Under the pieces are notes generated by a model. The model was not told the DNA's origin. It did not search any database and saw only the letters and a program-made list of their open reading frames with translations. The translations under genes were made by a program, and so were the position numbers. 64,000 bases of DNA. Source: an uncultured Candidatus Saccharibacteria bacterium. Lineage in GTDB: Bacteria; Patescibacteriota; Doudnabacteria; UBA920. Below are positions 14,597-34,411 of this stretch, one piece after another. Positions within the stretch are counted from its first letter, which is position 1; each line of letters begins with the position of its first letter. The stretch lies in the NCBI GenBank assembly GCA_964532425.1, contig CAZHIA010000007.1:8-64007 (forward strand), read 5' to 3'.

Positions 14597-15829
14597 ATGA
14601 ACATAAAATTTGCGAGTGTTGCGTTTAGCGCTGTTACGGTATTGATGTTATTTGCAGCCCAACCGGCTCGCGCCCAGCAAGTCCCAACATCAACTGGGAC
14701 TGGACAGGCGAGCCTGTCGGGCACAGGCACGTATGATTCCCAGACCGGACAGATCCACTACCAACTTTCCTTTCAGGCCCCGACTGGCACCGCAGTGTCT
14801 CTCATGGTGCCAATTCCTGCAGGTACGACTTTTGTCCCATCCAGTACTCCCGGTACCTTAAACAATAAAGCGGTGGTCTGGGACGTGCGCGGCAGTACGG
14901 CGACAAGTGTCACGTTCTCAGTCTTGGTCGATGCGGCACATATGCTTGATCCGTGGGCGTCAACAATCGTTTCCGTGAATCCCGGTACTGACAGGTTCGG
15001 CAATCGGATTGCTATTCCCGCGGCTGACCAAAAACAAGCCTTAGGACAGGGTGATGGGAATTCGGTGCCTTTAGGGTTCGGCGGCAGCATGGTCCTGGCA
15101 TTCAAAATGCCGATAATCAACGGCCCAGGGGATGATGTGGCAGTATATACGCCGGACAGTCTGGGTCAGGCTATTAAAGTGGAGGCCAGCCAAAATGGCA
15201 GTGATTGGCTGACGCTCGGTACGTTCCATCAGAGCGGTTCGGCAGACTTGGGAAGCTTGCCTTCGGCAACATTTATCCGCCTGACGGATGTCTCGCCCAT
15301 TTCCAGCTCTAACGATTTAGGTTATTCAATAGATGCGGTCCGGCAGTTACAGCTGGTCCCTTTCTCGTGCGGCATAGTCACTAATCCGACGCTGGTCGGA
15401 CAATTTGGCACGCTCGCCACGGCTTCTATTCGTACGGACATCGTGCAAGGATGCGGCGGGGGATCGGGCATGAGCGGTGTACCTATGTCAGGAGTTTCGC
15501 CACCGGCAACTCCAACCTCATCTCAAACTTCCACTGGTTCTGTTCCAACAGCATCAAATACTAACGGCGGCAGTGGGAGTTCGACTGGCTCGCCGGGGAG
15601 CAATCCTGCGGGTGCAGCAGCAGAGCCGACAGGGCCTTATATTGGCAGTAACGGGTTGCTGCATTTGCCGCTCAGTTCAGGCGGAGGAGCGGGGAGCCCT
15701 TCCGGGGAGGTTTTGGGAGCAGGTACGACGTTGCCGCGAACTGGCATACCGCTGGAATTTTACGCTTTTCTATCCCCGGCAATCTTGTATCCGTTATTGA
15801 GGAAGCACGGGAGTGTGAAGAATAAATAA
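14597..15829 (+). CDS. LPXTG-anchored cell-surface protein (sortase substrate).
   Basis: N-terminal signal peptide (MNIKFASVAFSAVTVLMLFAAQPARA). S/T/G-rich body. C-terminal LPRTG followed by a hydrophobic stretch and a basic tail (RKHGSVKNK). Confidence 0.7.
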   Translation: MNIKFASVAFSAVTVLMLFAAQPARAQQVPTSTGTGQASLSGTGTYDSQTGQIHYQLSFQAPTGTAVSLMVPIPAGTTFVPSSTPGTLNNKAVVWDVRGSTATSVTFSVLVDAAHMLDPWASTIVSVNPGTDRFGNRIAIPAADQKQALGQGDGNSVPLGFGGSMVLAFKMPIINGPGDDVAVYTPDSLGQAIKVEASQNGSDWLTLGTFHQSGSADLGSLPSATFIRLTDVSPISSSNDLGYSIDAVRQLQLVPFSCGIVTNPTLVGQFGTLATASIRTDIVQGCGGGSGMSGVPMSGVSPPATPTSSQTSTGSVPTASNTNGGSGSSTGSPGSNPAGAAAEPTGPYIGSNGLLHLPLSSGGGAGSPSGEVLGAGTTLPRTGIPLEFYAFLSPAILYPLLRKHGSVKNK

Positions 15830-15984
15830 TCTTACTCTATCTTTTTCAAAGATGTTCCCTTAAAGTATTTTTAAGCTTCAGGTTTATTCAGCGTACTATC
15901 AGCGGGTTGTAACAAAAAAACCGCCAAGCTGCTGCTTGGCGGTTGGGGTGGGTTCGTGATGTGCGCGATGCGGGGGTGCTATCA

Positions 15985-17124
15985 TTAGTCGATCTTGACG
16001 ACTTCTGCGATCTTGTCGCTACCGGGCTTTTTTCGAATAACTCTCTTAGTAGAGAGTTTGAGTGTCGGGATCGAAGGATCTTTTCGATTGCCGTCCAGGA
16101 TGACCGTGTCATATAGCTGGATGTGGCTATACCTCGGTGGGTCTGGAACCGGATCTGGCGGGTTGCTTGCCGCGGCAGCTGCCGGAACTGTCCTCATGGT
16201 GGGGACGGTGTCCATGTCCATCTGGCTGTAGGGCTGGGTAAAGATGGACGGAATCCGGTACACCGGTTGATCCTTTGATCCGGGAGGGTCCAGGAACTCG
16301 TCGAGTTTCTGCGAGACCCAGTCCCAGAACCTGCTCCAGCTCGGCATTTTGACCTTAGTGGTCCACTGGGGTAATCCGAACTTGAACTTGGGGACTGTGA
16401 CCTTGAACCTCGGTATATGCCAATCCGGCATCTTCGGCCTGGATACCTTGATCTTAGGGAACTTAACCTTGCCGAGCAGTTCTCTGATGCGTTGGCGGTT
16501 GTTGTAAGCCAGCATCAACAGAGCACATATGGCTCCCAGCAGAACCGTCCAGGCAATGACAGTCACGACCTCTATAAAGAACGAAGTATTCGTACCAGTG
16601 GCCTGCTTGCCGTTCTTGCGGCTGCCGCCTAAGGTGCGGTCTGCGTTCTGTTTCGGGGCTGCAGACTTGGGCTGGGCAGTCGACTGGGGGGCAGGGTTCT
16701 TCTGGACTCCGTTACCCGCACTTGGCACCGTAACAGTAACTACGGTATTGTTCGGATCAGGTGCCTTGGTGCTCGAAATCGTCCGCTGGGGGGCGTTCGT
16801 CTGCCGGGTAGCCACTCGAGTGGGGGAATACGTCGCGTTTTCCCATGCGAGCCACTCGGCTACTTCCTGATGGTTAACAGTCGCAGTGACTGGCAACCAA
16901 ACCGGCTGGCCTTCCTGCAGTTGACGGATGTCGGTTTTCTGGATCTTCTGTGTCAGACTGGCGTTCAGGTACAGGTTCGGGTACAGCGTAGGCTTATAGC
17001 CATTCATCTGGAGCGTGGTCCAGGCGGACCGGTGGATATGCATCGCAACAGCCTTAGTGGTCTGTGCGAAGCTTGCCACCATGAACAGCACCAAAAGAAT
17101 GATGGTGCGCATCACGAATTTCAT
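15985..17124 (-). CDS. Hypothetical membrane protein with a signal peptide, a central TM helix and a cytoplasmic Lys/Pro-rich repeat region (KVKFPKIKVSRPKMP...).
   Basis: GGAGGAG RBS before the MKFVMRT start. Topology read from the hydrophobic segments. Confidence 0.55.
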   Translation of the reverse strand: MKFVMRTIILLVLFMVASFAQTTKAVAMHIHRSAWTTLQMNGYKPTLYPNLYLNASLTQKIQKTDIRQLQEGQPVWLPVTATVNHQEVAEWLAWENATYSPTRVATRQTNAPQRTISSTKAPDPNNTVVTVTVPSAGNGVQKNPAPQSTAQPKSAAPKQNADRTLGGSRKNGKQATGTNTSFFIEVVTVIAWTVLLGAICALLMLAYNNRQRIRELLGKVKFPKIKVSRPKMPDWHIPRFKVTVPKFKFGLPQWTTKVKMPSWSRFWDWVSQKLDEFLDPPGSKDQPVYRIPSIFTQPYSQMDMDTVPTMRTVPAAAAASNPPDPVPDPPRYSHIQLYDTVILDGNRKDPSIPTLKLSTKRVIRKKPGSDKIAEVVKID

Positions 17125-17162
17125 GACTCCTCCTAAAATACAAAAGGAACAATTGGGTTCTG

Positions 17163-17220
17163 TAGCGTGCCCATTCATGGGTCTCTCCGGATTGCCGATG
17201 AATCGGCACGCTACCAAACC
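17163..17220. repeat. Structured element copy B: GTAGCGTGCC-CATTCATGGG...CCGATGAATCG-GCACGCTAC.
   Basis: 10-bp outer inverted repeat plus inner CATTCAT/ATGAATG arms. Shares TTGCCGATGAAYCGGYACGCTAC with copy A at 10995..11100. Lies in the 5' leader of the 15985..17124 gene. Confidence 0.5.
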
Positions 17221-17435: not shown

Positions 17436-17660
17436 TGATGGGACCATGGCTGGCGCTCCTTACGCAAAAGCCAAACAACAAAATGTCATCATATTATACC
17501 GTTTTTCGGGAAAAAGTCAAGAGCTATTAAACCTAATTCCTCACTCTTCGCCAAGGCTTCGGAGGACAGGTAATTTCCAATAAACTTAGCTGTTTAGTAT
17601 TTGCTCTTCGGCCATAAATTAGAAATTGGATATTAGAAATTGGATATTTTATAAACTACC

Positions 17661-18236
17661 ATGCCCTCCCCCCGTTCCCTTCTATTCTCCTCTATTATAA
17701 TACTCGCGCTATTTAGCGTACTCAATTTTGGCTATGTCTCCAAACAGGTGGTATACCGGTTAGGGATTCATACGTCCGAGCCGATGTCTGAGATCCAGAG
17801 AAGCGGTGTTTCCAACCGGGTAGTGGTCCCGAGCCTGCACATAGACGCGCCCCTCGTTGAACCGCGGGGTACCTCCGACAATGAGTTTGAAGCGGCTCTG
17901 GCCGGCGGCGTGGTGCACTATCCGGGAACAGCCGAACCGGGCGAGCAGGGGACTTGCTATCTGTTTGGTCACAGCTCGGACTACCCTTGGGTAGCCGGAA
18001 AGTACAAAGCAGTTTTTGCGCTGCTTCCCTCTATAAAGACGGGCGAGCAGGTGATACTTTTTGGACAGGAGGGAAAGCCGTACATTTATACGGTCACGGG
18101 GACCAAAGTCGCAGCTGCAAGCGATGTGCAGTACGTGCAATTAAAAGATCTTTCAAAAAAGCAGCTCATCCTCCAAACCTCGTACCCGGTAGGCACGGCG
18201 GCGAAAAGGTTTTTAGTGTTTGCTGAGATGAAATAA
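17661..18236 (+). CDS. Sortase-family protein (SrtA-like fold) with Ser at the position of the catalytic Cys.
   Basis: N-terminal TM anchor. YLFGHSS aligns with SrtA IAGHTF (His). KKQLILQTSYP aligns with QLTLITCDD, with Cys replaced by Ser. AAKRFLVFAE aligns with EKRKIFVATE (Arg). An LPXTG substrate gene lies 1.8 kb upstream. Confidence 0.65.
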   Translation: MPSPRSLLFSSIIILALFSVLNFGYVSKQVVYRLGIHTSEPMSEIQRSGVSNRVVVPSLHIDAPLVEPRGTSDNEFEAALAGGVVHYPGTAEPGEQGTCYLFGHSSDYPWVAGKYKAVFALLPSIKTGEQVILFGQEGKPYIYTVTGTKVAAASDVQYVQLKDLSKKQLILQTSYPVGTAAKRFLVFAEMK

Positions 18237-18270
18237 AAAATCCGTTCCGGCAGTAAGCCGGAACGGCGGT
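18233..18270. terminator. Bidirectional terminator CCGTTCCGGC-AGTAA-GCCGGAACGG between the sortase gene and the convergent 18273..18590 gene.
   Basis: 10-bp stem with a preceding A-run and a following T-containing run. Confidence 0.65.
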
Positions 18271-18272
18271 GG

Positions 18273-18590
18273 TTAGCGTCCTGTGATCCAGACCGCAACA
18301 GGGCAGGAGCCGTGGTGGAGCTCGTCGTAGTATCGCTGCCACTCCGTTTCGGGAACGTAGTAGCAGCCGTACGCGCGGCGGAACTTGCCGAGCTTTTCTT
18401 TGGCCGCAGCTTTGGCTGCGTGCGAGACCGGATATATAATCCTGTACTTAGCGGTGCTGGCGATCAGCATATCTGTGCCTTCGCACTTTGCCGTGGATTT
18501 GTCCAGCCAGTTTATGGGACTGAAAAAAATATCCCGGGTCAGATAGACGAGCAATGCCAGAACTGCGACAATCGCTATGGCTGTGAGCAT
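18273..18590 (-). CDS. Small membrane-anchored hypothetical protein (105 aa).
   Basis: AAGGAGGG RBS 5 nt before the ATG on the minus strand. N-terminal TM helix. Confidence 0.5.
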   Translation of the reverse strand: MLTAIAIVAVLALLVYLTRDIFFSPINWLDKSTAKCEGTDMLIASTAKYRIIYPVSHAAKAAAKEKLGKFRRAYGCYYVPETEWQRYYDELHHGSCPVAVWITGR

Positions 18591-19829: not shown

Positions 19830-22800
19830 ATGAACAAACTTATTAATCTCAAAGCTGCTGCCGCTGCGGCCATCATGGCCCTGGCCAGTGCCCTGACCCT
19901 CCTGGTCCCACAGCCGGCGTTGGCAGCACAAACCATCACTTCCGCCACACTTAATGGGGGAAGCTCAGTAGTGGTCAAGCCAGGTACAACCATAACGGCA
20001 AATGTTGTTGGCAGTTTAACTGGAGGGGATCATTGGCACGGCACTCAGTGGCGCATCAGTACCACACCACCTTCAGGGTCTGGTACATCTACTTGTTCAG
20101 ATACAACAGATCATAATAGTGGCACTGGTGTATCATCGGGAAATTTCAACATTACAGCCCCAGGAACAGCAGGTACCTATAATGTCTATTTTATAATGGA
20201 CTCGTCAAGTATTTGTAATGGTAGCGAAGGGGCATACTTTACATTAAGTAATGCAGTGGTTGTCGATGCTACAGCTCCTACAATTACCATCACACCTGGT
20301 GATTCAACCTCGCCAGTAAAGACCGTAACCTGGAACTGGTCGGCTAATGAGGCCTCTACTTATCGGTATATTATAAGCACCAATCCGGCCACAATGCCTT
20401 CCGGAAGTTTTTCTTCCGTGACATCTGCTACTCAGAGTACAGGGAATGGCACATACTATTTGAAAGTTGAGGCACAAGATGCAGCAGGGAATACAACTGT
20501 AAAAGGCGTGTACGCTATTTTGGATAACACAGCGCCAGTAATCGCTCCGGCTTCCGATGTTATCGCTACAGCTAATGCATTGGGTGGTGCAACAGTAAGT
20601 TATGCTCTTCCCACAGCTACAGACAATCATGATTCTACGGTAACTGTAACGTGCAGTCCGGTTTCCGGGAGTTTCTTCTCTCTTGGCCAAACAACTGTTA
20701 CCTGCAATGCCAGCGATGCTGCAGGAAACGCGGCCACTCCTGTTACCTTTAAAGTTACCGTAAATCCAGGTCCGGTCAGTGCGAGTCAGTCAACTGTTGA
20801 AGTGAGTGTCAGCTCCGCTACTACGAACGGCGGCAATGTCATTATTACCATTACTGCCAAGGACCAGTTTGGGAATGTCATACCGAATATTCTGCCTGCA
20901 AATGTAGTCATCTCAGCAAGCGGCAGCGGTAATACTGTTCACCAGCCTTCAGCTCCGACAGATTCCAATGGGAAGACGCAAGGCCAATTGGGATCAAGTG
21001 TTTCAGGGACTAAAACAATTACGGTAACGATAAACGGAACCCCGTTAACACAACAGCCGCAAGTTACATTTACAGTCGGCGATCCGGTCAATGCCACCGT
21101 TACGGCAACACCTAAGCCCCGGGAAGCGAGCCTTTCTGGAGCTTCGGTGGCTTTAGATATTTTTGTCGACGATGGCAATGGCAATGCGGTCAATGATGGT
21201 GTTATTTTAACGGTTACACCGTCTACCTCAGCTCCCCATGGTACACCTACGGTCACCGGTTGTACTCCCACCTCTGCCGGCCATGTCAGCTGCACGTTAA
21301 GCTTCAACTACAAGGGTACGGTCTCTTTAGCCATTTCTTCCTATAAGGGAAGCTTGAATGTACTCGGAGATAATCCGGTAAGCTTTGTTGATACCACCAA
21401 GCCGATTATAGCCGTTATACCGCCGAATCCGGACAGTGTGGAATATAAGGGGACATATACCGATCCTGGCGCAACGGCAACTGACAATATTGATGGTGAT
21501 TTGACTTCGCAGATTGTAAAAACCGGTACCGTCGATCCCAATACGCTCAACGGCGTACCGAATACGACCACGAAGGTGGTAGGCGTGTACACGCTCTATT
21601 ACAATGTGTCCGATTCCAGCACAAACGCCGCTGTACAGCAGACTCGTACGGTCAATGTGGTGGATACCACACCGCCGGTTATTGAGTCAATTACTTCTGA
21701 TGCAACAGCAAGCGGATGGTTAAAGGTCACAGATTCTATTACGTTTACGTTAACGACATCTGTAGTTGAACCCGCTGGTACAATAGTCTCAGGTTCCTAC
21801 AACGGTCGTTCTTTGACCTGGACCACAACGGATAATCGGCACTGGACTGCGGTCTATACGGTAACGGAAGGGGACTCCGATCAGCTTACGCCTTTGCAAA
21901 TTTCCGGTGTAAAGGTTACTGATGAAGCCGGAAACGATAGCACCTTAGCTTCGGGTATTGATGTTCAGAAGACTATTGATGCAAATACGCCAACGACGCC
22001 TACCGTCAACCTTCCTACGTATATCAACAATGCAGGAAAGAGCAATGTAGAATTAACAATTAGTGGCGAGTCGGGAACGACAGCTGATTACGCGCTCACT
22101 GATAGCGGTACTGGTTCAGTTACGGGCTCGGTGGTAATTCCGGGAACCGGTACTGCCGTTGTAAATCTCGATTTGTCTGGTTTGGCTGATGGCACAGTTA
22201 CCGCTTCTGTTACATTGACTGATGTTGCCGGAAATAAAAGCCCGGCAGGTACGGATACTGCCACGAAAGATACCGTTGCTCCCGCCGCCGGAACTCTGAC
22301 CATCGATCCGTACATAAACGTTACGAACCAGTCGCCGTTTGCCGTGAACGGGACGGGTGAGCCAAATGCCAAGCTTCATATTACCATCACTGATTTTGAT
22401 GGTCACACTGAAATTATCGATTACGGAGCAGTGACCGTAGGCGGCAATATTTACGCCATAAAAAATCTCTCGAGCTTACACGACGGAACAGTGACGTTTG
22501 CCCTCGCTTTGGAGGACGCTGCTGGTAATGTTGGCCCGGAATCTACAACTACTGCCGTAAAAGAGACTATCAGGCCTACATTGGTATCACTCGATAACGG
22601 CTCTTTGTACAAAGCCGGTACTTATACCTTGTCGGCGGAGTTTAGCGAAGACGTAACTGCGCCGAAAATTTCCATTGCATATACTTCGGTGAACGGCACT
22701 TGTTCTGATGTGACTAATGCAGCCATGACGCCGGGTAGTGATGCTCTTCATTACACGTACGATCTCGTGATCGATGATGCTTGTGATGGAGCAAATGCCA

Positions 22801-25800
22801 CCATCACCGTCAGTAATGCTACTGACACGGCTGGTAACCCCATGTTAGACGACGCTACTCACACCTTCAAAGTTGATACTTTAGCACCTGCTTTGGCTAT
22901 TACGAGCCCGGCGACTGATGCATATATCAACGCAAACTATTCGGTCAGTTATACTATGAGTGAAGATCTGCAGAGCGGCTCGCTAGTCTTCCACAGCATG
23001 ACTCCTGGCATGACCTGCCCGCTCACAGGCAGCGACTTGTTGTCCGGTACACATACCATAGCTGCTGTCGCGTTGACGACCTGTGGTATTACTTTGACCG
23101 AAGGGACTCATACTATAACGCTCAACGGCACTGATCTGGCTGGTAACAGCAACACGACTACTAACACTAATATCACCTACGATGTGACCGCGCCGACGGT
23201 CGTGAATGTGACTTCTCCTAAAGCAGATGGTATCTACAAGGCCGGTGAGGTGATAGATGTCACTGTACAGTTCAGCGAGCCGGTTAATGTGACTTATGAC
23301 TACACGTCCGGCGGTTGTGGTTATTGGCCGTGGTCACCGTGCTGGGACGGCCACTATTATGCGCCCCAGGTTGCCTTAGAAACAGGCTCGACTGATAGAA
23401 ATGCTGTGTACGACCGGGATGCGGGCGGCAGCGGTACCAACACAATTTCTTTCCGGTACGTAGTAGAAGCTGGTGACATGACATCTGACCTGGATTATAT
23501 ATCCGCCAGTGCGCTCAGTATGAACGGTCAGAGTATTCGCGATTTGGCTGGCAACGATGTTGTTGCAACCCTTGCCGTTCCTGGTGCAGAACATTCATTA
23601 GGCTTTAACAAAGCAATTGTCATTGATACCCAGGCTCCGACAGTTGCTTTGACGACTCCGGTGGCTGATCCGACAAATGTCACGCCGTTTACGGTAACGG
23701 CGACGTTCTCGGAAGATGTAACCGGGTTTGAGTCCTCCGATATAGTAGTGGGAAATGGTTCTGTCAGTAACTTTGCCGGCAGCGGTTCTGTGTATACCTT
23801 TGATGTAACGCCAACCGGCGACGGTTCGGTTACGATCGATGTCCCGGCTGCGGCAGCTGTTGATGCGGCTGGTAACGGTAATACGGTAGCGACCCAACTG
23901 ACTCGTGTCTTTGATGCAACCAAACCAACCGTAACTGCAGTAGCTTTGATGGAAGGAACAGTTGCTTCTGATGGTTTGGTTAAGGCTGGAGATGTGCTCA
24001 CGGTGAATGTGACCTTCAGTGAAGATATGGCGAGCACACCAGTTCCTCAAATCTCTATTGCCGGCGCAAATACGTTGACAGGGGCCGACATGACCAAGGT
24101 TGATGCCAAACATTATACCTACAACTTCACAGTCGGTTCCGGAGACGGTACTGCTACTATTACGATCGATAACGGAAAGGATTTGGCTGGCAATGCCCAG
24201 GTGGCCAATTCCAGTGCAACCTTTAAAGTCGATAACACCGCCCCAGTCATTTCCGGCACTCCTTCCAGCTTTGCCACAACGGCCAATACTACTGGCTATG
24301 CGAACGGCGTAACCTATACCATGCCGACTGCCGCCGATGACGTCGACGGTTCGGTGGCGGTTACCTGTACTCCGGCTTCCGGATCGAATTTCCCGCTCGG
24401 CGGAACAACGGTAACCTGCACAGCCAAGGACGCGGCCGGCAACAATGCCACACCAACAACCTTCACGGTTACCGTTAATCCTGCCGTCATTGCCAAAGTT
24501 ACGGTTTCTGCCTCTCCTTCTACCTTGACCACGGCAGATACTTCCACCCTGACCATCAATGGCCGCGACCAGTATGACAATGTGACGACCAATCAGAGCG
24601 GTACGGTTGTGGCGATCAGCGCGGACAATGGTGGCGCTTTGGGCGCAACCATTGTGACGCTTGCAAGCGGTGCGGCTACGACGAGTCTCAATAAGACTTC
24701 TGCTGGCGATGTGCATGTCACGGTGACCAGCGGTATCCTCACTCCGGGCAACACCACGGTGACGTTTACGAAGGCTGATGTAACTCCTCCGACTGTAGTC
24801 AATTCAAATCCAGCTCCGGGAGCCACAGGGGTTTCGGTGAATGCCTCCCTGTTCGTAACCTTCAGTGAACCCCTTAAGTCCACAAGCATCAATTCCACCA
24901 ACGTCCAGCTGTGGCGCGTAGCTACGGGAACCGAGGTTTCCGATGTGCAAATTCCGGTTACGGTCTCCCTGGTGTCCGGCGATATGCAAGTGAACCTTAC
25001 GCCTGCCGGACCGCTTGAATACACGAATTCTTACTACTTTGTAGTCAGTGGCGTGCAGGATGCCGCGGGTAATGCCATGGCCGACCCGTACACCACCGCG
25101 GGTAATCCGTTCAAGACCGAAGACAGCACGGCGGATGTAACAAACCCGACAGTAAAGAGTCAGTATCCCGCAGCCGCTGCAACGAATGTTGCTATAACAG
25201 TCAAGCCGTCCGTGACCTTCTCGGAAACGATGGACACTACCACGCTGACTGACAGCAACGTCCAACTCATCAAAGATTCAGACAGCTCTGTTATCCCTGC
25301 AACGGTAGTAGTGGGCAATGGAGGCACCCAGGCTATTCTGGAACCGGCTACCGCCCTCTTAAACAGCACGAGCTACCATGTAACCGTTAGTACTGCCGTT
25401 AAGGATCTTGCAGGCAATCCGTTGGCCAGCAGCTATGTTGGAGACAGCTTCACCACGGAAGCCGAGCAGGTGGTAGACTTGGCCGTGACCCAGACCGAAC
25501 TGCTGCAGAGCTATGCCACTCCGAACAATACCTATGCCAGTGGCTGGAAGTGGAAGCTCAAGGTCACGACCCCGAAAGATGAGACTAAATTGCGCATGAA
25601 GTTTACTGACTTCACCAGCGGCGCCAATACCGTGCCCGCTGCAGGCAATATCCATTTCTACTCTGCTCAGTCCTCGGATGCCGCTACGTCTGACACGGCC
25701 CGTGAGATCACGGCAGCCGGCACGTTCAGCTCGGACATTACCCTAAACGGCGATACCGATACCTCCGCTCCTGGACGGCAGATTGAAATTATCGTTGAGG

Positions 25801-25880
25801 TTAAAGTTCCGGCCGGTACCCCGGGCGGTTCGTACTCCAATAGCTACGATATCCAGACCAGTACTCCTTCTGAGACGTAA
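19830..25880 (+). CDS. Giant secreted cell-surface protein (2016 aa) with repeated Ig-like/HYR-like modules; putative adhesin.
   Basis: Signal peptide MNKLINLKAAAAAAIMALASALTLLVPQPALAA. Two near-duplicate HYR-like modules (ATDNHDSTVTVTCSPVSGSFFSLGQTTVTCNASDAAGNAATPVTFKVTVNP and AADDVDGSVAVTCTPASGSNFPLGGTTVTCTAKDAAGNNATPTTFTVTVNP). T/S/V/N-rich beta-type repeats throughout. Confidence 0.8.
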   Translation: MNKLINLKAAAAAAIMALASALTLLVPQPALAAQTITSATLNGGSSVVVKPGTTITANVVGSLTGGDHWHGTQWRISTTPPSGSGTSTCSDTTDHNSGTGVSSGNFNITAPGTAGTYNVYFIMDSSSICNGSEGAYFTLSNAVVVDATAPTITITPGDSTSPVKTVTWNWSANEASTYRYIISTNPATMPSGSFSSVTSATQSTGNGTYYLKVEAQDAAGNTTVKGVYAILDNTAPVIAPASDVIATANALGGATVSYALPTATDNHDSTVTVTCSPVSGSFFSLGQTTVTCNASDAAGNAATPVTFKVTVNPGPVSASQSTVEVSVSSATTNGGNVIITITAKDQFGNVIPNILPANVVISASGSGNTVHQPSAPTDSNGKTQGQLGSSVSGTKTITVTINGTPLTQQPQVTFTVGDPVNATVTATPKPREASLSGASVALDIFVDDGNGNAVNDGVILTVTPSTSAPHGTPTVTGCTPTSAGHVSCTLSFNYKGTVSLAISSYKGSLNVLGDNPVSFVDTTKPIIAVIPPNPDSVEYKGTYTDPGATATDNIDGDLTSQIVKTGTVDPNTLNGVPNTTTKVVGVYTLYYNVSDSSTNAAVQQTRTVNVVDTTPPVIESITSDATASGWLKVTDSITFTLTTSVVEPAGTIVSGSYNGRSLTWTTTDNRHWTAVYTVTEGDSDQLTPLQISGVKVTDEAGNDSTLASGIDVQKTIDANTPTTPTVNLPTYINNAGKSNVELTISGESGTTADYALTDSGTGSVTGSVVIPGTGTAVVNLDLSGLADGTVTASVTLTDVAGNKSPAGTDTATKDTVAPAAGTLTIDPYINVTNQSPFAVNGTGEPNAKLHITITDFDGHTEIIDYGAVTVGGNIYAIKNLSSLHDGTVTFALALEDAAGNVGPESTTTAVKETIRPTLVSLDNGSLYKAGTYTLSAEFSEDVTAPKISIAYTSVNGTCSDVTNAAMTPGSDALHYTYDLVIDDACDGANATITVSNATDTAGNPMLDDATHTFKVDTLAPALAITSPATDAYINANYSVSYTMSEDLQSGSLVFHSMTPGMTCPLTGSDLLSGTHTIAAVALTTCGITLTEGTHTITLNGTDLAGNSNTTTNTNITYDVTAPTVVNVTSPKADGIYKAGEVIDVTVQFSEPVNVTYDYTSGGCGYWPWSPCWDGHYYAPQVALETGSTDRNAVYDRDAGGSGTNTISFRYVVEAGDMTSDLDYISASALSMNGQSIRDLAGNDVVATLAVPGAEHSLGFNKAIVIDTQAPTVALTTPVADPTNVTPFTVTATFSEDVTGFESSDIVVGNGSVSNFAGSGSVYTFDVTPTGDGSVTIDVPAAAAVDAAGNGNTVATQLTRVFDATKPTVTAVALMEGTVASDGLVKAGDVLTVNVTFSEDMASTPVPQISIAGANTLTGADMTKVDAKHYTYNFTVGSGDGTATITIDNGKDLAGNAQVANSSATFKVDNTAPVISGTPSSFATTANTTGYANGVTYTMPTAADDVDGSVAVTCTPASGSNFPLGGTTVTCTAKDAAGNNATPTTFTVTVNPAVIAKVTVSASPSTLTTADTSTLTINGRDQYDNVTTNQSGTVVAISADNGGALGATIVTLASGAATTSLNKTSAGDVHVTVTSGILTPGNTTVTFTKADVTPPTVVNSNPAPGATGVSVNASLFVTFSEPLKSTSINSTNVQLWRVATGTEVSDVQIPVTVSLVSGDMQVNLTPAGPLEYTNSYYFVVSGVQDAAGNAMADPYTTAGNPFKTEDSTADVTNPTVKSQYPAAAATNVAITVKPSVTFSETMDTTTLTDSNVQLIKDSDSSVIPATVVVGNGGTQAILEPATALLNSTSYHVTVSTAVKDLAGNPLASSYVGDSFTTEAEQVVDLAVTQTELLQSYATPNNTYASGWKWKLKVTTPKDETKLRMKFTDFTSGANTVPAAGNIHFYSAQSSDAATSDTAREITAAGTFSSDITLNGDTDTSAPGRQIEIIVEVKVPAGTPGGSYSNSYDIQTSTPSET

Positions 25881-25909: not shown

Positions 25910-27409
25910 ATGAAGAAATATTTGTTCCTGACATTGCTGCTGGCGGGGATGGCGGCGGCGCCGAAAGTGTTGGCCGTAGCCACACCGCCGGTAACCGGAC
26001 ACACCTCTACCATTTCCGGCACCCTCACGACCGGATTGTCGAGCGGGCCGCAGGTAGTCGTGGTTGTGCCGCCGAGCGCGAGCCCTGATGCCGGCACATA
26101 TACCTCGACCCAGAATGTCGTTTTGACTGCCACGGGCAGCCAGAGCATCCACTACACCACGGACGGCACTGAGCCGACGTGCACTACCGCCTCAACGTAC
26201 AGCGCCGCTATTCCCGTATCCGCCACGCTGACCGTTAAAGCCATCTCCTGCTATCCTGACAGCCATGCCTCAACCGTTGCCAGCTTTACCTACACGATCA
26301 ATACCCCTGCCGCTCCTTCCAGCCCCTCCGGCGGGGGAGGGGGCGGGGGAGGCGGATCGTTCGCACCCTCTTCTCCCTTTGGCACAATTTCAGTCGCCAT
26401 CAATGGCACTGCCACGACAACTTCGAGCCGTACGGTAACGCTGACGCTGACCGCGACCGGCGCGACGCAGATGATCATTTCCAATGCAGCCGATTTATCC
26501 GGATCTTCCTGGCAAACATTCGCTACGACCACAACCTGGACCTTGCCGGCTGGCGATGGCATAAAGGCGGTGTATGCCAAGTTCAAGAACGCTTCGAATG
26601 AATCTTCCGTCGTCAGCGATACCATAACGCTGTACGAAGGCAAGGTCTTGGGAGAAAGCACAGCACTGAATGCTCATCCGAATGGTACTTTGATTCTTGA
26701 CGGCAAAACTATCTATCTCATTGAGAACCGCGAGCGTCATGGTTTCCGCGACCCGCAGGAGTACGCCTCCTACGGTTATCGGTTCGACCAGGCAGTGCCG
26801 GTCATTGAAGCGGACAGCCTATTGCCAGTGGGTGACATCATGAAAGCTATGACAGGAACCCTGGCCCTCGACACTTCCGATAACCGTACGGTCTACATGG
26901 TAGGCAAGAACGCCACCAAGCGCGGTTTCGCCTCGTACAGCGTCTTTACCGGCCTTGGCTATGCTAAAGGTTCGGGTATGTCCGGCCAAGCGGTTAATGG
27001 CATGTTCAAGATTAACATGACCGATTACCCCGCAGGCCTGCCCATTACCTCGGCCACGGAACCGCATCCTGAAGGTGCACTGGTCCGCCAGAGTAACGGT
27101 ACTATTTGGTGGATATTGGACGGCAAGCGCAGTGGCTTTGAATCCGAAGCGGTGTATAACACCTATGGCTTCACCTTTGACCGGGCTGTTCCAGCCAATG
27201 CGGCTGATCTGGCTCTCTCTGAAGGACCGCTGGTCAAGTTCCGCGACGGGACGCTGGTTCGGGACGGTACGGTTTACTATATTATTACCGACGGGCAAAA
27301 AATGCCCTTTGCCTCGGTCCAGTCACTGGCGAGCTGGGGCTACAAGACCTCCAACGTCATAACCGCAAACCTCAGTACTTACACGCAAGCGCCAACTACG
27401 CTACCCTAA
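25910..27409 (+). CDS. Secreted protein with a poly-Gly linker and four C-terminal approximately 45-aa repeats (G-x-KR-x-GF...GY motif); possible cell-wall-binding repeats.
   Basis: Signal peptide. GGGGGGGGG run. Repeats of the form IYLIENRERHGFRDPQEYASYGY, VYMVGKNATKRGFASYSVFTGLGY, IWWILDGKRSGFESEAVYNTYGF and VYYIITDGQKMPFASVQSLASWGY. Confidence 0.65.
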   Translation: MKKYLFLTLLLAGMAAAPKVLAVATPPVTGHTSTISGTLTTGLSSGPQVVVVVPPSASPDAGTYTSTQNVVLTATGSQSIHYTTDGTEPTCTTASTYSAAIPVSATLTVKAISCYPDSHASTVASFTYTINTPAAPSSPSGGGGGGGGGSFAPSSPFGTISVAINGTATTTSSRTVTLTLTATGATQMIISNAADLSGSSWQTFATTTTWTLPAGDGIKAVYAKFKNASNESSVVSDTITLYEGKVLGESTALNAHPNGTLILDGKTIYLIENRERHGFRDPQEYASYGYRFDQAVPVIEADSLLPVGDIMKAMTGTLALDTSDNRTVYMVGKNATKRGFASYSVFTGLGYAKGSGMSGQAVNGMFKINMTDYPAGLPITSATEPHPEGALVRQSNGTIWWILDGKRSGFESEAVYNTYGFTFDRAVPANAADLALSEGPLVKFRDGTLVRDGTVYYIITDGQKMPFASVQSLASWGYKTSNVITANLSTYTQAPTTLP

Positions 27410-29226: not shown

Positions 29227-29286
29227 CTGTAGTGCAGGGCCGTGCCCTGCCCTCAAGAAAGCAGGCCGAGGGCCTGCACTACATCT

Positions 29287-30045
29287 ATGGACAATCCTGA
29301 AATTACAACCCGGCAAGCGAAGATCCTCGCTGCCATCGTGAAAGAGAATTGCGACACCGGCGAGCCGGTGGCGAGCGCCGATTTGGTGGAAAAATACCAG
29401 CTCGACGTGAGCACGGCCACTATCCGCAACGAGATGGCGGCTTTGGAGAAGCTGGGATATATTTACCAACCGCACACTTCTTCCGGCCGCGTGCCGACGG
29501 ACAAAGGCTTTCGTTATTTCGTTAACCAGCTCATGGATAAGGTCAAGCTGACCTTAAAGGAGCAGGAGCTGCTCAAGCGGGAAATGATCAAGCTACAGAT
29601 TGCGCATCACGAGCTCGGTCGCCGATTGACTAAATTGCTCTCTGATCACAGCCAGCAGGCCAGCTTTGCCCTGTTTCCGGAAGAAGTCTCGACTATGGGA
29701 CTTTCAAAGATTTTGAATAATCCCGCCCTGCCGCCGGAAGATGCTCGCGAGATTGCCGAGTTCTTCGATAATATCGATTCCTATGCCGAACAGATGATGA
29801 AAGACTACGGCGAGAAAGGCCAGGCGGAAGCGTACATCGGCAAGGAACTGACCTTGTCTAAGAAGAGCGACTACTCCATGATCGTCTCGCCACTGAAACT
29901 CCCGAGCGGGAAAAAAGGAGTCATCGGACTTATTGGTCCGAAGTCCATGAAGTACGAAAAGAATTTGTCGCTGTTAGAATATATCGCGAAGTTATTGGGA
30001 AGCGGAGGAGGTGCGGCGATATTGGTCATGTTGTTTATTAAATAA
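29287..30045 (+). CDS. hrcA: Heat-inducible transcription repressor HrcA (short form, about 252 aa).
   Basis: N-terminal wHTH (TTRQAKILAAIVKENCDTGEPVASADL). Located downstream of CIRCE and upstream of grpE-dnaK-dnaJ. Start set at MDNPEI; the longer ORF beginning at 29242 starts inside a REP-like palindrome. Confidence 0.75.
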   Translation: MDNPEITTRQAKILAAIVKENCDTGEPVASADLVEKYQLDVSTATIRNEMAALEKLGYIYQPHTSSGRVPTDKGFRYFVNQLMDKVKLTLKEQELLKREMIKLQIAHHELGRRLTKLLSDHSQQASFALFPEEVSTMGLSKILNNPALPPEDAREIAEFFDNIDSYAEQMMKDYGEKGQAEAYIGKELTLSKKSDYSMIVSPLKLPSGKKGVIGLIGPKSMKYEKNLSLLEYIAKLLGSGGGAAILVMLFIK

Positions 30046-30128
30046 AATTAACAAATTCACAAATTAACAAATTGAAACCGCAGTAAATTTTATTTAATTT
30101 GTTAATTTTTACTTAATTTTGTTCAATT
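30046..30128. repeat. AT-rich MITE-like palindromic element (arms AAATTAACAAATT / AATTTGTTAATTT, centre CCGCAGT) in the hrcA-grpE spacer.
   Basis: Internal inverted repeat. A 36-nt near-identical block (AATTTTATTTAATTTGTTAATTTTTACTTAATT) is shared with 44625..44720. Confidence 0.6.
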
Positions 30129-30755
30129 ATGTCTGAAGACAATAACCAGAACGACGAGAATACCCAGCATGAAGAGGTGGCTACCGAACAGCTTCAAGCC
30201 GATCTCAATGCCATGACGGACAATTGGAAGAGAGCCTTGGCAGATTTTGAGAACTATCGCCGCAGGACCGAGGAGCAAAGCCAGGAACTGATTAATTTCG
30301 CCAAGGAAACCGTGATTGCACGGCTGCTACCGACCTTGGATGCGCTGGAGCAGGCGCTTAGGCATCTGCCGGAATACTCCGAAGATGAACCCCTCCTAAC
30401 CTCCCCTTTTGAAAAAGGGGAGGAAACTGCAGGAACCATAGCAAAAGAGAAGGGGTCTGCAGAAACCCCCTCTGTGCAAAAGAGGGGGCAGGGGGAGTTC
30501 AAAAAACAGTACGCGAACTGGCAAACAGGAGTGAACGGCATTATCCTGCAGCTCGACAAGACCTTGGAAGAACTCGGCGTGAAGAAAATTGAAGCCGTGG
30601 GCAAGAAATTTGACCCCAACTTCCATGAAGCGGTTCGCGAAGTGGAAGGGGAAGAGGACGGCATGGTCGTGGAAGAATACCAGACGGGGTTCGAGCTGAA
30701 CGGAAAAGTTATCCGGCCGAGCCAGGTAGTAATCAGCAAGAAAGTTCAAAATTAA
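30129..30755 (+). CDS. grpE: Nucleotide exchange factor GrpE, with a low-complexity insert.
   Basis: GrpE-like coiled-coil N-terminus and C-terminal beta domain (ILQLDKTLEELGVKKIEAVGKKFDPNFHEAV). Sits between hrcA and dnaK. Confidence 0.85.
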   Translation: MSEDNNQNDENTQHEEVATEQLQADLNAMTDNWKRALADFENYRRRTEEQSQELINFAKETVIARLLPTLDALEQALRHLPEYSEDEPLLTSPFEKGEETAGTIAKEKGSAETPSVQKRGQGEFKKQYANWQTGVNGIILQLDKTLEELGVKKIEAVGKKFDPNFHEAVREVEGEEDGMVVEEYQTGFELNGKVIRPSQVVISKKVQN

Positions 30756-30777
30756 AAATGAAAAATTCAAAGTTGAT

Positions 30778-31149
30778 ATGCAGGATTCAAACAAGCAGTT
30801 CAAGGTAGAACTGAAAAAGAGGGTCTATGTTTGGGTTTTGCGCTTAATAAGGTTCTTGAAATCCTTACCGAAAAATTATGTATTTGAGGTATTAGGGAAG
30901 CAGCTATTGAGAAGTGGTACAAGTATCCTGGCTAATTTTATAGAAGCTCAAGCTGCTTCTTCAAGAAAGGATTTTACAAATTTTATTAATCATAGTTTGA
31001 AATCAGCAAATGAAACGAAGGTTTGGTTAAGTCTGTTAAAAGATTCTTTATCTAAAGACTATGAACGTGAAGCAGGTGGGTTGTTAAAAGAAGCAATTGA
31101 ACTATCAAATATTTTTGGAAGTATTGTAACTACGTTGCGGATGAAGTAA
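30778..31149 (+). CDS. Four-helix-bundle protein (the family often found in 23S rRNA intervening sequences), AT-rich, apparently inserted between grpE and dnaK.
   Basis: About 120 aa helical protein matching the four-helix-bundle family (VLRLIRFLKSLPKNYVFEVLGKQLLRSGTSILANFIEAQAASSRKDF...). Flanked by imperfect inverted repeats (AAAATGAAAAATTCAAAGTT / ACTTTGAATTTTT). Confidence 0.7.
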   Translation: MQDSNKQFKVELKKRVYVWVLRLIRFLKSLPKNYVFEVLGKQLLRSGTSILANFIEAQAASSRKDFTNFINHSLKSANETKVWLSLLKDSLSKDYEREAGGLLKEAIELSNIFGSIVTTLRMK

Positions 31150-31197
31150 TTTTTAATTTTTCACTTTGAATTTTTAACTAACAACAGGAGTAATAGT

Positions 31198-33132
31198 ATG
31201 CCAAAAATTATAGGAATTGATTTAGGAACCTCAAACTCAGCCGCGTCTGTTATGGAAGGCGGCAAGCCGGTCATAATTCCGGCGGCGGAAGGCGCCAGCC
31301 TTGGCGGCAAGGCCTTTCCGTCGTATGTGGCGTTTACCAAAGAAGGCCAGCTCTTAGTGGGCGAGCCAGCCCGTCGGCAAGCCGTGACCAACCCGGACGG
31401 CACCATTTTTGAAGCCAAACGCAAAATGGGAACCAACTTCCGCTACACCGTCAACGGCAAGGAATACAGCCCGGAACAAATTTCCGCATTCATTTTGCAG
31501 AAGATCAAGAAAGATGCTGAAACCTTCCTGGGTGAACCGGTCGCTAAAGCCGTCATTACCGTGCCGGCCTACTTTGACGATGCCCAGCGCCAGGCTACTA
31601 AGAACGCCGGCGAGATCGCCGGGCTCGAAGTGGTGCGCGTCATCAACGAGCCGACCGCGGCTGCCTTTGCTTATGGCCTCGATAAGTCTTCCTCCAAAGA
31701 TCAGAAGATTTTGGTTTTTGACCTCGGCGGTGGTACGCTCGATGTGACCATTATGGATTTTTCAGAGATCGACAACCAGGCCACCTTTGAAGTACTGGCC
31801 ACCTCAGGCGACACCCAGCTCGGCGGCAAGGACATGGACAAGGCTCTGATCGATTACATCGTGAACACCTTCAAGCAGGAAAACAGCGTAGATTTGAACA
31901 ATGACAAGATGGCTATGAACCGCGTTAGGGAAGCGGCGGAAAAAGCCAAGATCGAATTATCAACCACCTTGGAGACCGACGTAAACCTGCCATTCATTAC
32001 GGCTGACCAGAACGGTCCCAAGCACTTGCAGATGAAGATTACCCGCGCCAAGCTCGAAGAGCTCATTAAACCCATCGTGGACCGCATGCGCCACCCGGTC
32101 GAGCAGGCTATCAGTGATGCCAAGCTGACCCCGCAGCAGATCGACAAGATCATCTTAATCGGCGGTCCGACCCGTATGCCCGCAGTCAAGAAATTCGTGG
32201 AAGACTACATTGGTAAGCAGGTGGAAGGCGGTATTGACCCCATGGAGGCTGTAGCCAAGGGTGCGGCCATCCAGGCTGGCATTCTGGGCGGCGATGTCCA
32301 GGGCAAAGAAATCTTGCTGCTTGATGTCACACCGTTGACCATGGGTATTGAAACGCTCGGCAGCGTAATGACCCCCATGATCCCGCGCAATACGACCGTG
32401 CCGACATCTAAAACCGAGACATTCTCGACTGCGGCCGATAACCAGACCTCCGTGGAAGTCCGTGTCTACCAGGGCGAGCGTCCGTTGGCTCCGGATAATA
32501 AATTTTTAGGCAATTTCCAGTTGGACGGCATTCCTCCGGCGCCGCGCGGCGTACCGCAGGTGGAAGTCACGTTCGACATTGACGCCAACGGTATTTTGAC
32601 GGTCAAAGCTAAGGACAAGGCTACGGGCAAGGAACAACATATTACCATCCAAGGGTCTTCCAACCTGTCCAAGGACGAGATTGAGCGCATGAAGAAGGAA
32701 GCCGAAGCCCATGCGGCAGAGGACCGGAAGCGCAAAGAGACCATCGACGCCCGCAACCAGGCCGATACGCTGATCTCCGTTTCCGAACGCACGCTTAAAG
32801 ATGCCGCCTCGACAAGCTCGGGGTCTTCGACCGGCTCCAAAGTTACTGATGAGATGAAAAAAGAAGTTGAGGAAAAGATCAAGGCTTTAAAGGATGTCAA
32901 AGACAAGGATGATGTGGATGCCATAAAGAAAGCTATGGACGAACTTTCCACTGCCATCCAGAAGGTTGGCGCGGCTATGTACCAGAGCCAGCAGCCGGAA
33001 GCCGGCAGTCCGAAACCGGAAGCGGGAGCTAATCCGGAGGGGCAAAACCCTTCGTCCGCCCAAGGCGGATCAGGGTCTAATGGAGGCCCCGTTGATGCCG
33101 AATTTTCTGAAGTCAACAATCAAAATAAATAG
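31198..33132 (+). CDS. dnaK: Molecular chaperone DnaK (Hsp70).
   Basis: Canonical Hsp70 motifs [23 protein letters not shown] and [11 protein letters not shown]. 644 aa. Confidence 0.97.
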
Positions 33133-33220
33133 TTTATAATGAAGGTAATTCGCCGCACGGCGAATTACCTTCAAAAGATTTAAAGCGGTGCCGGAATATC
33201 CGGCATTTGCAAACACAAAA

Positions 33221-33961
33221 ATGGACTTCAAACGATTCGTTCTTTGCTTGCTAATCATCTTCATGGGCGTATTTATTTACGTGCGCATCATGTCTTTGGG
33301 TGATGAGCATAGTCGGTTTAACCAGACAACCCGAATCCAACTGGGCAGATTTGCCGTTCTGCGCACGCTCTTTGGCCTGCACAGCGCGGGGGATGCGCGA
33401 GCCGAGTACCTCAAAGCATCAGGACCTATTAGTGTGGAGATTGTCCAGGCGGAAAGCCTGAATCTGCCGCAGGAGGTCATTGATGATTTTACCAGCAAGG
33501 TCAAAGAATACACGGGCCGCCAAACCGTCTTGTATAACATTGATACCGTAAAGCGCGGTTCTTTGAGCGATGCCGATATTAATGATATTATCGCCACTAA
33601 CCGCAGGCATGTTTCGCCGGCCGAGACAAACCTGTTCGTGATTTATGCGGACGATTTTAACAGTAAGACGGATGAAGTTGGCCGGACCGTGAGAGATTTC
33701 GGCATGGTCATTTCTTCAACCCGCCTCCAAGACCTGACCAGGCAATCTCCGAAAGCGCTCAATAGCTATATTCTCTCCACCATGCTTCACGAGTTCGGCC
33801 ACCAGCTCGGCCTTGATCATGTTGGCGACGACCGCTGCATCATGAACAAAGATATCGAAGCCTCTCCGGAACAGTCGTCATTCATAGTCTCATATACGCC
33901 GACTTCGTTTTGCGACAAGGAATTGGAACAGCTGAAGGGGATTAAGGCGGCATTGCAGTAA
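33221..33961 (+). CDS. Membrane-anchored zinc metalloprotease of the metzincin / archaemetzincin-like type.
   Basis: HEFGHQLGLDH (HExxHxxGxxH) followed by C..M and Cys residues. N-terminal TM helix. Start chosen at MDFKRF; the ORF could begin at a GTG at 33188. Confidence 0.6.
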   Translation: MDFKRFVLCLLIIFMGVFIYVRIMSLGDEHSRFNQTTRIQLGRFAVLRTLFGLHSAGDARAEYLKASGPISVEIVQAESLNLPQEVIDDFTSKVKEYTGRQTVLYNIDTVKRGSLSDADINDIIATNRRHVSPAETNLFVIYADDFNSKTDEVGRTVRDFGMVISSTRLQDLTRQSPKALNSYILSTMLHEFGHQLGLDHVGDDRCIMNKDIEASPEQSSFIVSYTPTSFCDKELEQLKGIKAALQ

Positions 33962-34021
33962 GGTGTTAACTTTATTTGTTCGGTGTATGTCTGAGAAGTT
34001 ACAAATTCACACTAAAAAATT

Positions 34022-34330
34022 ATGAACGACAACAAACCATCCCAGCCCGAGAGCGGGCAGCAGATACAGATTAAGATCACTGACGAAACCCTGAGGGGAT
34101 CGTACGCGAATATGCTCCAAGTAGCCCATACTTCCGAGGAGTTCTTTCTGGATTTTATGAATATCATGCCGCCTGCGGGCATTGTCTCCGCCCGGGTCAT
34201 TGTTTCTCCCGGCCACATCAAGCGGATGATAGCGGCAATGCAGGAGAACCTGAAACATTACGAAGAGCAGTTTGGCGAGGTGAAGGCCGCAGCGGTTCCT
34301 GACCACCGAATTGGATTCAAGACCGAATAA
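34022..34330 (+). CDS. Small conserved hypothetical protein, DUF3467-like.
   Basis: About 100 aa. The motif SYANMLQVAHTSEEFFLDFMNIMPP...VSPGHIKRMIAAMQENLKHYEEQFG resembles the DUF3467 family. Recalled from memory, not searched. Confidence 0.45.
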   Translation: MNDNKPSQPESGQQIQIKITDETLRGSYANMLQVAHTSEEFFLDFMNIMPPAGIVSARVIVSPGHIKRMIAAMQENLKHYEEQFGEVKAAAVPDHRIGFKTE

Positions 34331-34411
34331 CTAACCGATAAACACAGATGAAAAACTGATGAACACGGATCCGTGTTTATCTGTTTGCAGTTAATCAGTG
34401 TTAATCACTGT

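Follow-up and report, generated by a model that had tools for sequence, protein, structure and literature searches.

Can a sortase, one of the enzymes that link proteins to the surface of bacterial cells, work with a serine where its catalytic cysteine is expected? The question is raised by one gene in a 64,000-nucleotide stretch of DNA, here called the window, that covers positions 8 to 64,007 of contig CAZHIA010000007.1 from an uncultured Candidatus Saccharibacteria bacterium (assembly GCA_964532425.1; GTDB lineage Bacteria; Patescibacteriota; Doudnabacteria; UBA920). The gene encodes a sortase homolog with Ser174 at the position of the catalytic Cys, and a gene upstream encodes a secreted protein whose C-terminus carries an LPRTG sorting signal. 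A first-pass annotation, made from the sequence alone, had pointed to this pair and offered three explanations: a serine-nucleophile transpeptidase, an inactive pseudo-sortase or regulator, and a sequencing or assembly error. The analysis described below places the serine in a large and conserved clade. With moderate confidence, we read the window protein as an active serine-nucleophile sortase dedicated to the neighboring LPRTG protein.

A Sortase by Family and Fold

The sortase gene is an intact open reading frame (ORF) that matches, at 100%, an NCBI contig of 130,744 nt. Its product belongs to the Pfam Sortase family PF04203: residues 55–190 score 68.8 bits, where the cutoff is 26.6. Its class is less plain. 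The general model TIGR01076 (sortase_fam) falls slightly short, at 38.6 against a cutoff of 39.35, and none of the NCBIfam class models (A–F and GN) reaches its curated cutoff. The scores and cutoffs are 44.5 and 165 for class D, 46.5 and 140 for the SrtD exception model, 34 and 166 for class F, 30.2 and 160 for class E, and 30.6 and 158 for class GN.

The AlphaFold2 (AF2) model, built on a 60-sequence alignment, consists of an N-terminal helix followed by a β-barrel (pLDDT 90.9, pTM 0.85). When the model is compared with the PDB by Foldseek, every one of the 50 best matches is a sortase (class D, C, A, or E), with E values from 2.9e-11 to 5e-9. The top match is the SrtD structure 4d70 (E 2.9e-11), and TM scores, normalized to target length, reach 0.78. 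The window sortase is unclassified among the sortase classes; by score and fold, it is closest to class D. Its N-terminal anchor occupies a position that is common to the homologs, which align from residue ~5, and the catalytic domain is predicted to be extracytoplasmic and membrane-anchored. The family hidden Markov model finds no second sortase in the 64-kb window.

Serine in the Column of the Catalytic Cysteine

Ser174 occupies the exact column of the catalytic Cys. That is, the Cys of the TLxTC motif is missing from the window sortase, and Ser174 stands in its column. The alignments agree on this point. A phmmer alignment with 2kw8 pairs LILQTS with ITLITC, which sets Ser174 opposite the catalytic Cys. 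The family profile, aligned with 4d70 (SrtD), 8t28 and 2xwg (SrtC), and 5go5 (SrtE), places TS opposite TC every time. An hhalign comparison with S. aureus SrtA equates His104 with H120, Ser174 with C184, and Arg183 with R197 at 95% probability. In the nearest Cys-type relatives, the same columns read LTLMTCWP versus the LTLQTSYP of the Ser-type clade (the Ser clade). In the AF2 model, one strand ends at residue 103, next to His104, and another at residue 173, next to Ser174, which is the active-site topology of sortases. A misalignment of the motif was rejected because four independent alignments and the AF2 secondary structure agree.

Thus, what the first-pass annotation had described, a sortase homolog that has Ser in place of the nucleophilic Cys, is borne out by the Pfam score, by all of the alignments, and by the predicted fold. 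The codon was misplaced in that annotation. Positions 18196..18198, where it had been put, read CGG, in another codon, and the TCG of Ser174 is at 18180..18182. As the codon is TCG (TCN in general), not TGA, recoding or selenocysteine insertion at Ser174 does not apply.

A Clade with an Invariant Serine

The first homolog search was word-seeded, and Ser is present at the nucleophile column in 119 of the 120 closest proteins that were examined. An index-free HMMER scan of 1.84 billion cluster representatives gave 3,787 matches at E ≤ 1e-3 and 1,896 at E ≤ 1e-10. Among the best 150 of these matches, 106 have Ser, 41 have Cys, and 3 are truncated at the nucleophile column. The top ~77 are all Ser-type, and Cys forms begin at E 5e-29. 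A bias of the word-seeded search toward LQTSY was rejected as an explanation, since the index-free scan still has Ser throughout its top ~77. His is found in 150 of the 150 best representatives and Arg in all 146 that are full-length, in agreement with the His and Arg boxes noted at first pass. The comparison of Cys with Ser in orthologs, which the first-pass annotation had proposed as a check, comes out in favor of Ser in both searches.

When one genome was scanned for each GTDB species, 426 Ser-sortase loci were identified. The locus-level counts given here and below rest on 80 of the 426, retrieved with 10 kb on either side of each gene. Two complete chromosomes are included, and nearly all of the 80 are labelled Patescibacteria: many are Doudnabacteria, and Uhr-, Kerfeld-, Veblen-, and Kazan-group genomes are also represented. 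Counting the window and two tandem pairs, there are 82 genomic copies, and all 82 have the catalytic His, Ser, and Arg. The Ser codons of these copies are TCT (23), TCC (22), TCG (20), TCA (15), AGT (1), and AGC (1). The amino acid is thus fixed, with saturated synonymous sites and both Ser codon families in use. At first pass, weight had been put on the two-base difference between TCG and the TGC of Cys. This difference carries none, since one base change leads from TGC to TCC and every TCN codon, as well as AGY, occurs among the homologs.

Selection on the clade was gauged from the ratio of nonsynonymous to synonymous substitution rates (dN/dS). The NG86 estimate for the catalytic domain, a rough one, has a median of 0.12 over 27 usable pairs. 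In a rough neighbor-joining tree, made with the motif columns masked, a single split holds 105 of the 106 Ser sequences and 1 of the 41 Cys sequences. Identity is 0.46 within the Ser clade (minimum 0.29) versus 0.44 within the Cys relatives. Because of the split, the within-clade identity, and the dN/dS value, we take the Cys-to-Ser switch to have happened essentially once, long ago, with no later relaxation of constraint. The substitution seen at first pass therefore stands as an observation. It does not stand as a peculiarity of a single gene, since a whole conserved clade has Ser.

A few members depart from the pattern or elaborate on it. P0109 (199 residues, 9 contigs) is the sole Cys-bearing protein among the 120 closest homologs. 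It reads LQTCWP, has Asn for the catalytic His (FGNSSD), and may stand between the Ser and Cys groups as an intermediate or as a degenerate form. LQTC also occurs in P0226 and P0260, with His intact. Tandem Ser-sortase pairs occur at L021:8447-10429 and L039:9914-11162; all of the copies have His, Ser, and Arg, and one L039 copy reads LQASYP, with Ala instead of Thr ahead of Ser.

Polar Residues Around the Active Site

The Ser clade differs from its Cys relatives at more than the nucleophile. Y100 is found in 92 of 106 Ser-clade representatives versus 2 of 41 Cys relatives, which usually have Phe. D107, three residues past His104, is found in 101 of 106 versus 6 of 41. Q172, two residues ahead of Ser174, is present in 106 of 106 versus 2 of 41, with Met in 28 of the 41. 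Y175 is present in 95 of 106 versus 3 of 41, where Trp is usual. Judging from these columns, the active site of the Ser clade has been remodelled, with polar residues fixed near the catalytic ones in sequence.

The first-pass annotation would have been refuted by another Cys, such as that of GTCYLFGH (Cys99), at the nucleophile position. This was looked into and rejected. The column is variable, with Cys in 14 of 106 representatives, and most members have no Cys to offer: 70 of 106 are cysteine-free over the whole protein and 86 of 106 over the catalytic domain. No Cys is conserved anywhere in the Ser-clade proteins among the 106 representatives.

Linked and Fused LPRTG Proteins

A strict filter for substrates called for an ORF on the same strand, ending no more than 2.5 kb upstream of the sortase, with an LPxTG motif, a hydrophobic segment, and a basic tail. 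The filter was passed at 58 of the 80 loci, with a median gap of 59.5 bp; 54 of these have LPRTG and the other 4 LPVTG. When L025 and L055, where ORF calls overlap, and L010, where the two genes are fused, are added, at least 61 of 80 loci have an adjacent or fused substrate. At four other loci, the upstream sequence is shorter than 900 nt. The sorting signal is rare, being found in 65 of the 2,566 ORFs of at least 90 residues across these loci.

The signals extend beyond the pentapeptide. A V-L-G-A element lies 1–5 residues (mostly 3) ahead of LPxTG in 48 of the 58 upstream substrates, and Pro is found at +2 past the motif Gly in 34 of 53. The substrates are large, with a median of 812 residues, and contain SpaA/CnaB-like, VWA, SdrD_B, and DUF11 domains. 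By their sequences, they look like adhesins or pilins.

Gene fusions are classic evidence of functional coupling, and in-frame fusions are found in three cluster representatives (P0121, P0124, and P0180) and at the Doudnabacteria locus L010 (8873-10426). The order within the single ORF is adhesin, LPRTG, transmembrane segment, basic stretch, transmembrane segment, and Ser-sortase. This topology is consistent with a placement of both cargo and enzyme outside the cell. If the sortase is active, the fused adhesin-sortase polypeptide would cleave itself. The fusion arrangement is found in none of 21 long Cys-type relatives. To judge from linkage and fusion, the Ser-sortase is presumably dedicated to the neighboring LPRTG protein, and the pair in the window fits the substrate-sortase pattern of the related loci.

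The LPRTG Protein of the Window

The candidate substrate in the window (Table 1) has the sole convincing sorting signal in the 64 kb. The LPRTG gene reported at first pass is real, with a signal peptide, LPRTG, a hydrophobic segment, and a basic tail, and its distance of 1.8 kb from the sortase is also correct: 1,832 nt separate the end of the substrate gene from the start of the sortase gene. The C-terminus of the protein reads GEVLGAGTTLPRTG-IPLEFYAFLSPAILYPLL-RKHGSVKNK. By BLASTP, the protein groups with proteins encoded directly upstream of Ser-sortases at 17 other loci; no Pfam or NCBIfam family was found for it.

The 1,832-nt gap is explained by an ORF of 410 residues, on the minus strand, that sits inside the pair. 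Its product has a signal-peptide-like N-terminus and a transmembrane segment in mid-protein, and belongs to no Pfam family. The ORF is absent at the corresponding position in related loci and thus lies outside of the conserved cassette. At 15944..15919, the minus strand has a hairpin that resembles a terminator, in keeping with a real minus-strand gene at this place.

Table 1. Features of the Ser-sortase locus in the window, with PEP-CTERM-like proteins of related loci in the last row.
Feature	Position	Strand	Basis or remark
Candidate substrate, secreted, 410 residues, C-terminal LPRTG sorting signal	14597..15829	+	sorting-signal scan
Substrate signal peptide, MNIKFASVAFSAVTVLMLFAAQPARAQ	14597..14677	+	from sequence; putative AQPARA-Q cleavage
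Extended sorting motif, VLGAGTTLPRTG	15710..15745	+	VLGA 15710..15721, LPRTG 15731..15745
Hydrophobic segment and basic tail of sorting signal, IPLEFYAFLSPAILYPLLRKHGSVKNK	15746..15826	+	after LPRTG
Intervening ORF, 410 residues, predicted membrane or secreted	15985..17217	-	between substrate and sortase
Ser-type sortase gene	17661..18236	+	intact ORF, ATG start, 191 residues; identical to database protein P0001
N-terminal membrane anchor, residues 7-25, LLFSSIIILALFSVLNFGY	17679..17735	+	hydrophobic; AF2 helix 4-21
Sortase β-barrel catalytic domain, residues 53-190	17817..18230	+	Pfam 55-190; AF2 strands E53-56 to E182-190
His104 codon CAC, catalytic His, proposed general base	17970..17972	+	directly after AF2 strand E97-103; equals SrtA H120
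Asp107 codon, HSSD motif, Ser-clade-specific	17979..17981	+	putative triad role
Gln172 codon, LQTS, Ser-clade-specific, invariant	18174..18176	+	clade alignment
Ser174 codon TCG, catalytic-Cys position of sortases, proposed nucleophile	18180..18182	+	alignments and clade conservation
Arg183 codon AGG, catalytic Arg	18207..18209	+	last AF2 strand, E182-190; equals SrtA R197
Hairpin, 10-bp, GC-rich, directly 3′ of sortase stop	18242..18266	.	T-run next on minus strand
PEP-CTERM-like proteins	L023:7801-8469; L036:7837-8508, 9-329, 521-1285; L038:7379-8023; L051:2966-3661		

Proposed Mechanism and Its Alternatives

We propose that the neighboring surface protein would be exported by the Sec pathway, after which the hydrophobic segment and basic tail at its C-terminus would keep it in the membrane. 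The sortase would recognize the extended VLGAxT(E)LPRTG signal, the corresponding peptide being VLGAGTTLPRTGIP. His104 would act as the general base for Ser174, whose attack on the Thr-Gly bond would produce an ester acyl-enzyme in place of the canonical thioester, resembling the acyl-enzyme of penicillin-binding proteins. Arg183, possibly with Y100, D107, Q172, and Y175, would position the substrate, stabilize the oxyanion, or orient His. The ester would then be resolved by an amine, probably one from a peptidoglycan precursor, though a pilin lysine is possible, and the adhesin would be left anchored or polymerized. The cleavage site and the acceptor are those that we infer, as are the roles of D107, Q172, Y100, and Y175. 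The broader proposal is that Patescibacteria hold a monophyletic family, spanning at least ~400 species, of true Ser sortases that would use Ser-His (possibly Ser-His-Asp107) plus Arg183, each member being dedicated to a neighboring or fused adhesin with VLGAxT(E)LPRTG. We hold its chances to be slightly better than even.

How else might the serine be explained? The error put forward at first pass, or a private inactivating mutation in one genome, has only the prior expectation of Cys in sortases to recommend it. Hundreds of independent assemblies (NCBI, ENA, JGI, and Logan) carry the Ser, which is written with six codons, and the ORF is intact and under purifying selection. Conservation across homologs and codon diversity refute this explanation, and we give it a negligible probability. 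A conserved pseudo-sortase is a weightier alternative, though in our estimate an unlikely one. Such a protein would keep the fold and the substrate groove but form no acyl-enzyme. Its role would be to bind the LPRTG signal of the neighboring protein without catalysis, be it as receptor, chaperone, or retention factor, or else to regulate a Cys sortase encoded elsewhere. Sortase chemistry depends on a thiolate, and a binding-only partner would also be compatible with strong conservation, tight synteny, and fusion. An engineered S. aureus SrtA C184S, moreover, is reported to lose most of its activity and to be nearly inactive (PMC4827206). Yet pseudoenzymes usually relax their catalytic residues or evolve at a raised rate, and neither is the case here. 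The catalytic residues are invariant (His 150/150, Arg 146/146, and Ser 106/106, the last with six codons), a merely structural position would accept Ala, Gly, or Thr, and more polar residues became fixed around the site. The dN/dS is 0.12, and divergence is no larger than in the Cys relatives. As for a partner to regulate, no Cys sortase was seen within 10 kb of the Ser-sortase genes at any of the 80 loci. Because of the invariant His, Ser, and Arg, the clade-specific polar residues, the low dN/dS (~0.12), and the linked or fused LPRTG substrates, we favor an active enzyme over a pseudo-sortase.

An enzyme could also be active without being a transpeptidase. As a Ser hydrolase or maturation protease, it would cut between the Thr and Gly of LPRTG and shed the adhesin or free a fused precursor, with no link to peptidoglycan; we consider this quite improbable. 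Ester acyl-enzymes do hydrolyze readily, the in-frame fusions would require cleavage in cis only, and the structure of the Patescibacteria envelope is uncertain (PMC5220378). Nevertheless, the substrates keep the whole sorting signal of LPRTG, transmembrane segment, and basic tail, which is an architecture for retention in the membrane before transfer, and the Ser acyl-enzymes of penicillin-binding proteins are textbook examples of efficient transpeptidation. Hydrolysis and aminolysis are not separated by the present data. To return to the dedicated, active Ser sortase that we prefer, several observations weigh against it. The reported loss of activity in SrtA C184S means that Ser is no drop-in replacement for Cys, and a Ser enzyme would be active only with the help of residues that compensate for the change. 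About 15 loci with sufficient flanking sequence show no adjacent substrate. In the window, the NCBIfam LPXTG-anchor model has no match on the substrate, and an inserted gene on the opposite strand separates the pair.

Relation to Known Sortases

Canonical sortases (PF04203, MEROPS C60; S. aureus SrtA, C. perfringens SrtD 4d70, Actinomyces SrtC 2xwg and 8t28, and Streptomyces SrtE 5go5) have in common with the Ser clade an eight-stranded β-barrel and an N-terminal anchor. In both, His follows β4, Arg is in the last strand, T-x lies directly before the nucleophile, and the substrate is of the LPxTG type with a transmembrane segment and a basic tail. Unlike canonical sortases, the Ser clade has Ser at the nucleophile position and LTLQTSYP instead of TLxTC, and most of its members are Cys-free. 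It also has Y100, D107, and Q172 as extra invariant or nearly invariant residues, and its members are almost all Patescibacteria-labelled. The Ser clade is a sortase by fold and sequence, yet it lacks the chemical feature that defines the family.

All sortase classes are described as having a His-Cys-Arg set, with Asn for Arg in some class F enzymes (PMC8703055). The word "serine" is absent from the main text of a 2024 structural review (PMC11231552). Sortases are reported to be common in the Candidate Phyla Radiation (CPR), with the catalytic residue not discussed (PMC6744442). No description of a natural Ser-type sortase, or of a Cys/Ser interchange in sortases, was found in the openly searchable full-text literature, subscription-only papers being outside that scope.

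The nearest relatives of the Ser clade are Cys-type Patescibacteria sortases with LxLMTCWP and GHSS(N/Y), at 36–47% identity. The GHSS His box, the P176/G178/T179/R183 block, and the length of the catalytic domain are common to the two groups. A subgroup of the Cys type that was sampled from metagenome loci (L081-L160) keeps Cys and, unlike the Ser clade, is ~330 residues long with an extended N-terminus. An in-frame TGA is present in 67 of these 80 sister genes, with up to 34 per gene. Under table 11 their ORFs look fragmented, and when TGA is read as sense, all 80 become intact His-Cys-Arg sortases. By this reading, the subgroup stems largely from UGA-recoding lineages (Gracilibacteria/Absconditabacteria-like, code 25). 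None of the L081-L160 loci has an adjacent LPxTG substrate, so they give no view of how substrate choice may have changed with the nucleophile.

Other sortases also lie directly beside their likely cargo, as with SrtB and IsdC/NPQTN and the class C pairs of pilus operons. Like the pilus-type pairs, the Ser-sortase loci have cargo with CnaB/SpaA-type and VWA domains, and some, such as L048, have two LPRTG proteins in tandem. Unlike class C pilus sortases, Ser-sortases have no class C lid and do not satisfy the class models. To our knowledge, an extended VLGA...LPRTG signal and substrate-enzyme fusions are not known from SrtB or class C pairs.

Exchange of a thiol for a hydroxyl has parallels elsewhere. 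In PA-clan proteases, such as chymotrypsin and viral 3C, Cys and Ser nucleophiles interchange. In cell-wall transpeptidation, penicillin-binding proteins use Ser and L,D-transpeptidases use Cys, via an acyl-enzyme. The folds of the PA clan, the penicillin-binding proteins, and the L,D-transpeptidases are unrelated to that of sortase; these cases are an analogy, not homology.

Significance

If the proposed activity is real, the Ser clade would be the first case in nature of a sortase with a hydroxyl nucleophile, and the first known nucleophile switch within the sortase fold. The fold would then join the short list of folds with a natural thiol/hydroxyl interchange. A large Ser clade under purifying selection would overturn the definition of sortases, in reviews and databases, as cysteine transpeptidases with a universal His-Cys-Arg set (e.g., PMC8703055), and the current annotation, "sortase," hides the difference between Ser and Cys. 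The co-variation of Y100, D107, Q172, and Y175 would amount to a natural recipe for Ser function, where the engineered C184S fails. A Cys-free sortase with LPRTG specificity would resist oxidation and alkylation and could serve in sortase-mediated protein ligation. For the ultra-small Patescibacteria, in which the envelope and host attachment are poorly understood, the locus would be a conserved, syntenic module for adhesin attachment.

The Surrounding Genes

The sortase gene is flanked by two short elements. A perfect 14-bp tandem direct repeat (TAGAAATTGGATAT, two copies) at 17620..17647 ends 13 nt before the start codon and could be an operator or promoter element. The hairpin just past the stop codon is probably the terminator of a convergent gene and may act bidirectionally. 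That gene is an ORF of 105 residues, 18273..18590 on the minus strand, with an N-terminal hydrophobic segment. Its match to the L,D-transpeptidase family YkuD_2 (E 0.089, 12.6 bits) is far under the cutoff and is probably due to chance, though the ORF lies beside the gene of a cell-wall enzyme.

Farther downstream, hrcA, grpE, and dnaK follow the sortase at 15–17 loci and are found in the window at 29242..33132. The full hrcA-grpE-dnaK(-dnaJ) operon occupies 29242..35560 of the window and is also present at L004 and about 15 other loci. This common context supports the orthology of the cassette. In the window, ~11 kb of surface-protein genes lie between the sortase cassette and the operon. One of these, 1.6 kb downstream of the sortase at 19830..25880 on the plus strand, encodes a secreted protein of 2,016 residues with the Ig-like repeats Big_5, HYR, Big_12, Big_1, and Big_13; it has a signal peptide, and neither LPxTG nor another recognizable anchor was found in it. 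The next gene, at 25910..27409, encodes a protein of 499 residues with CHB_HEX_C_1 and Fn3_assoc domains. Elsewhere in the window are a type IV pilin-like protein with the N_methyl motif (39029..39565), a homolog of the capsule-synthesis protein PGA_cap (53584..54924), and DprA (55964..57061). Such a set of competence and surface genes is typical of Patescibacteria and fits the placement of the genome, for which the analysis relied on common synteny and on the labels of homologs, mostly Patescibacteria and many of them Doudnabacteria.

Lastly, several of the related loci have proteins with PEP-CTERM-like tails, consisting of VPEP, a hydrophobic segment, and RRR, beside the LPRTG/Ser-sortase cassette (Table 1). 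PEP-CTERM signals usually go with the exosortases of Gram-negative bacteria. Their occurrence together with LPRTG sorting systems in these metagenome-assembled genomes is odd, and mis-binning is possible.

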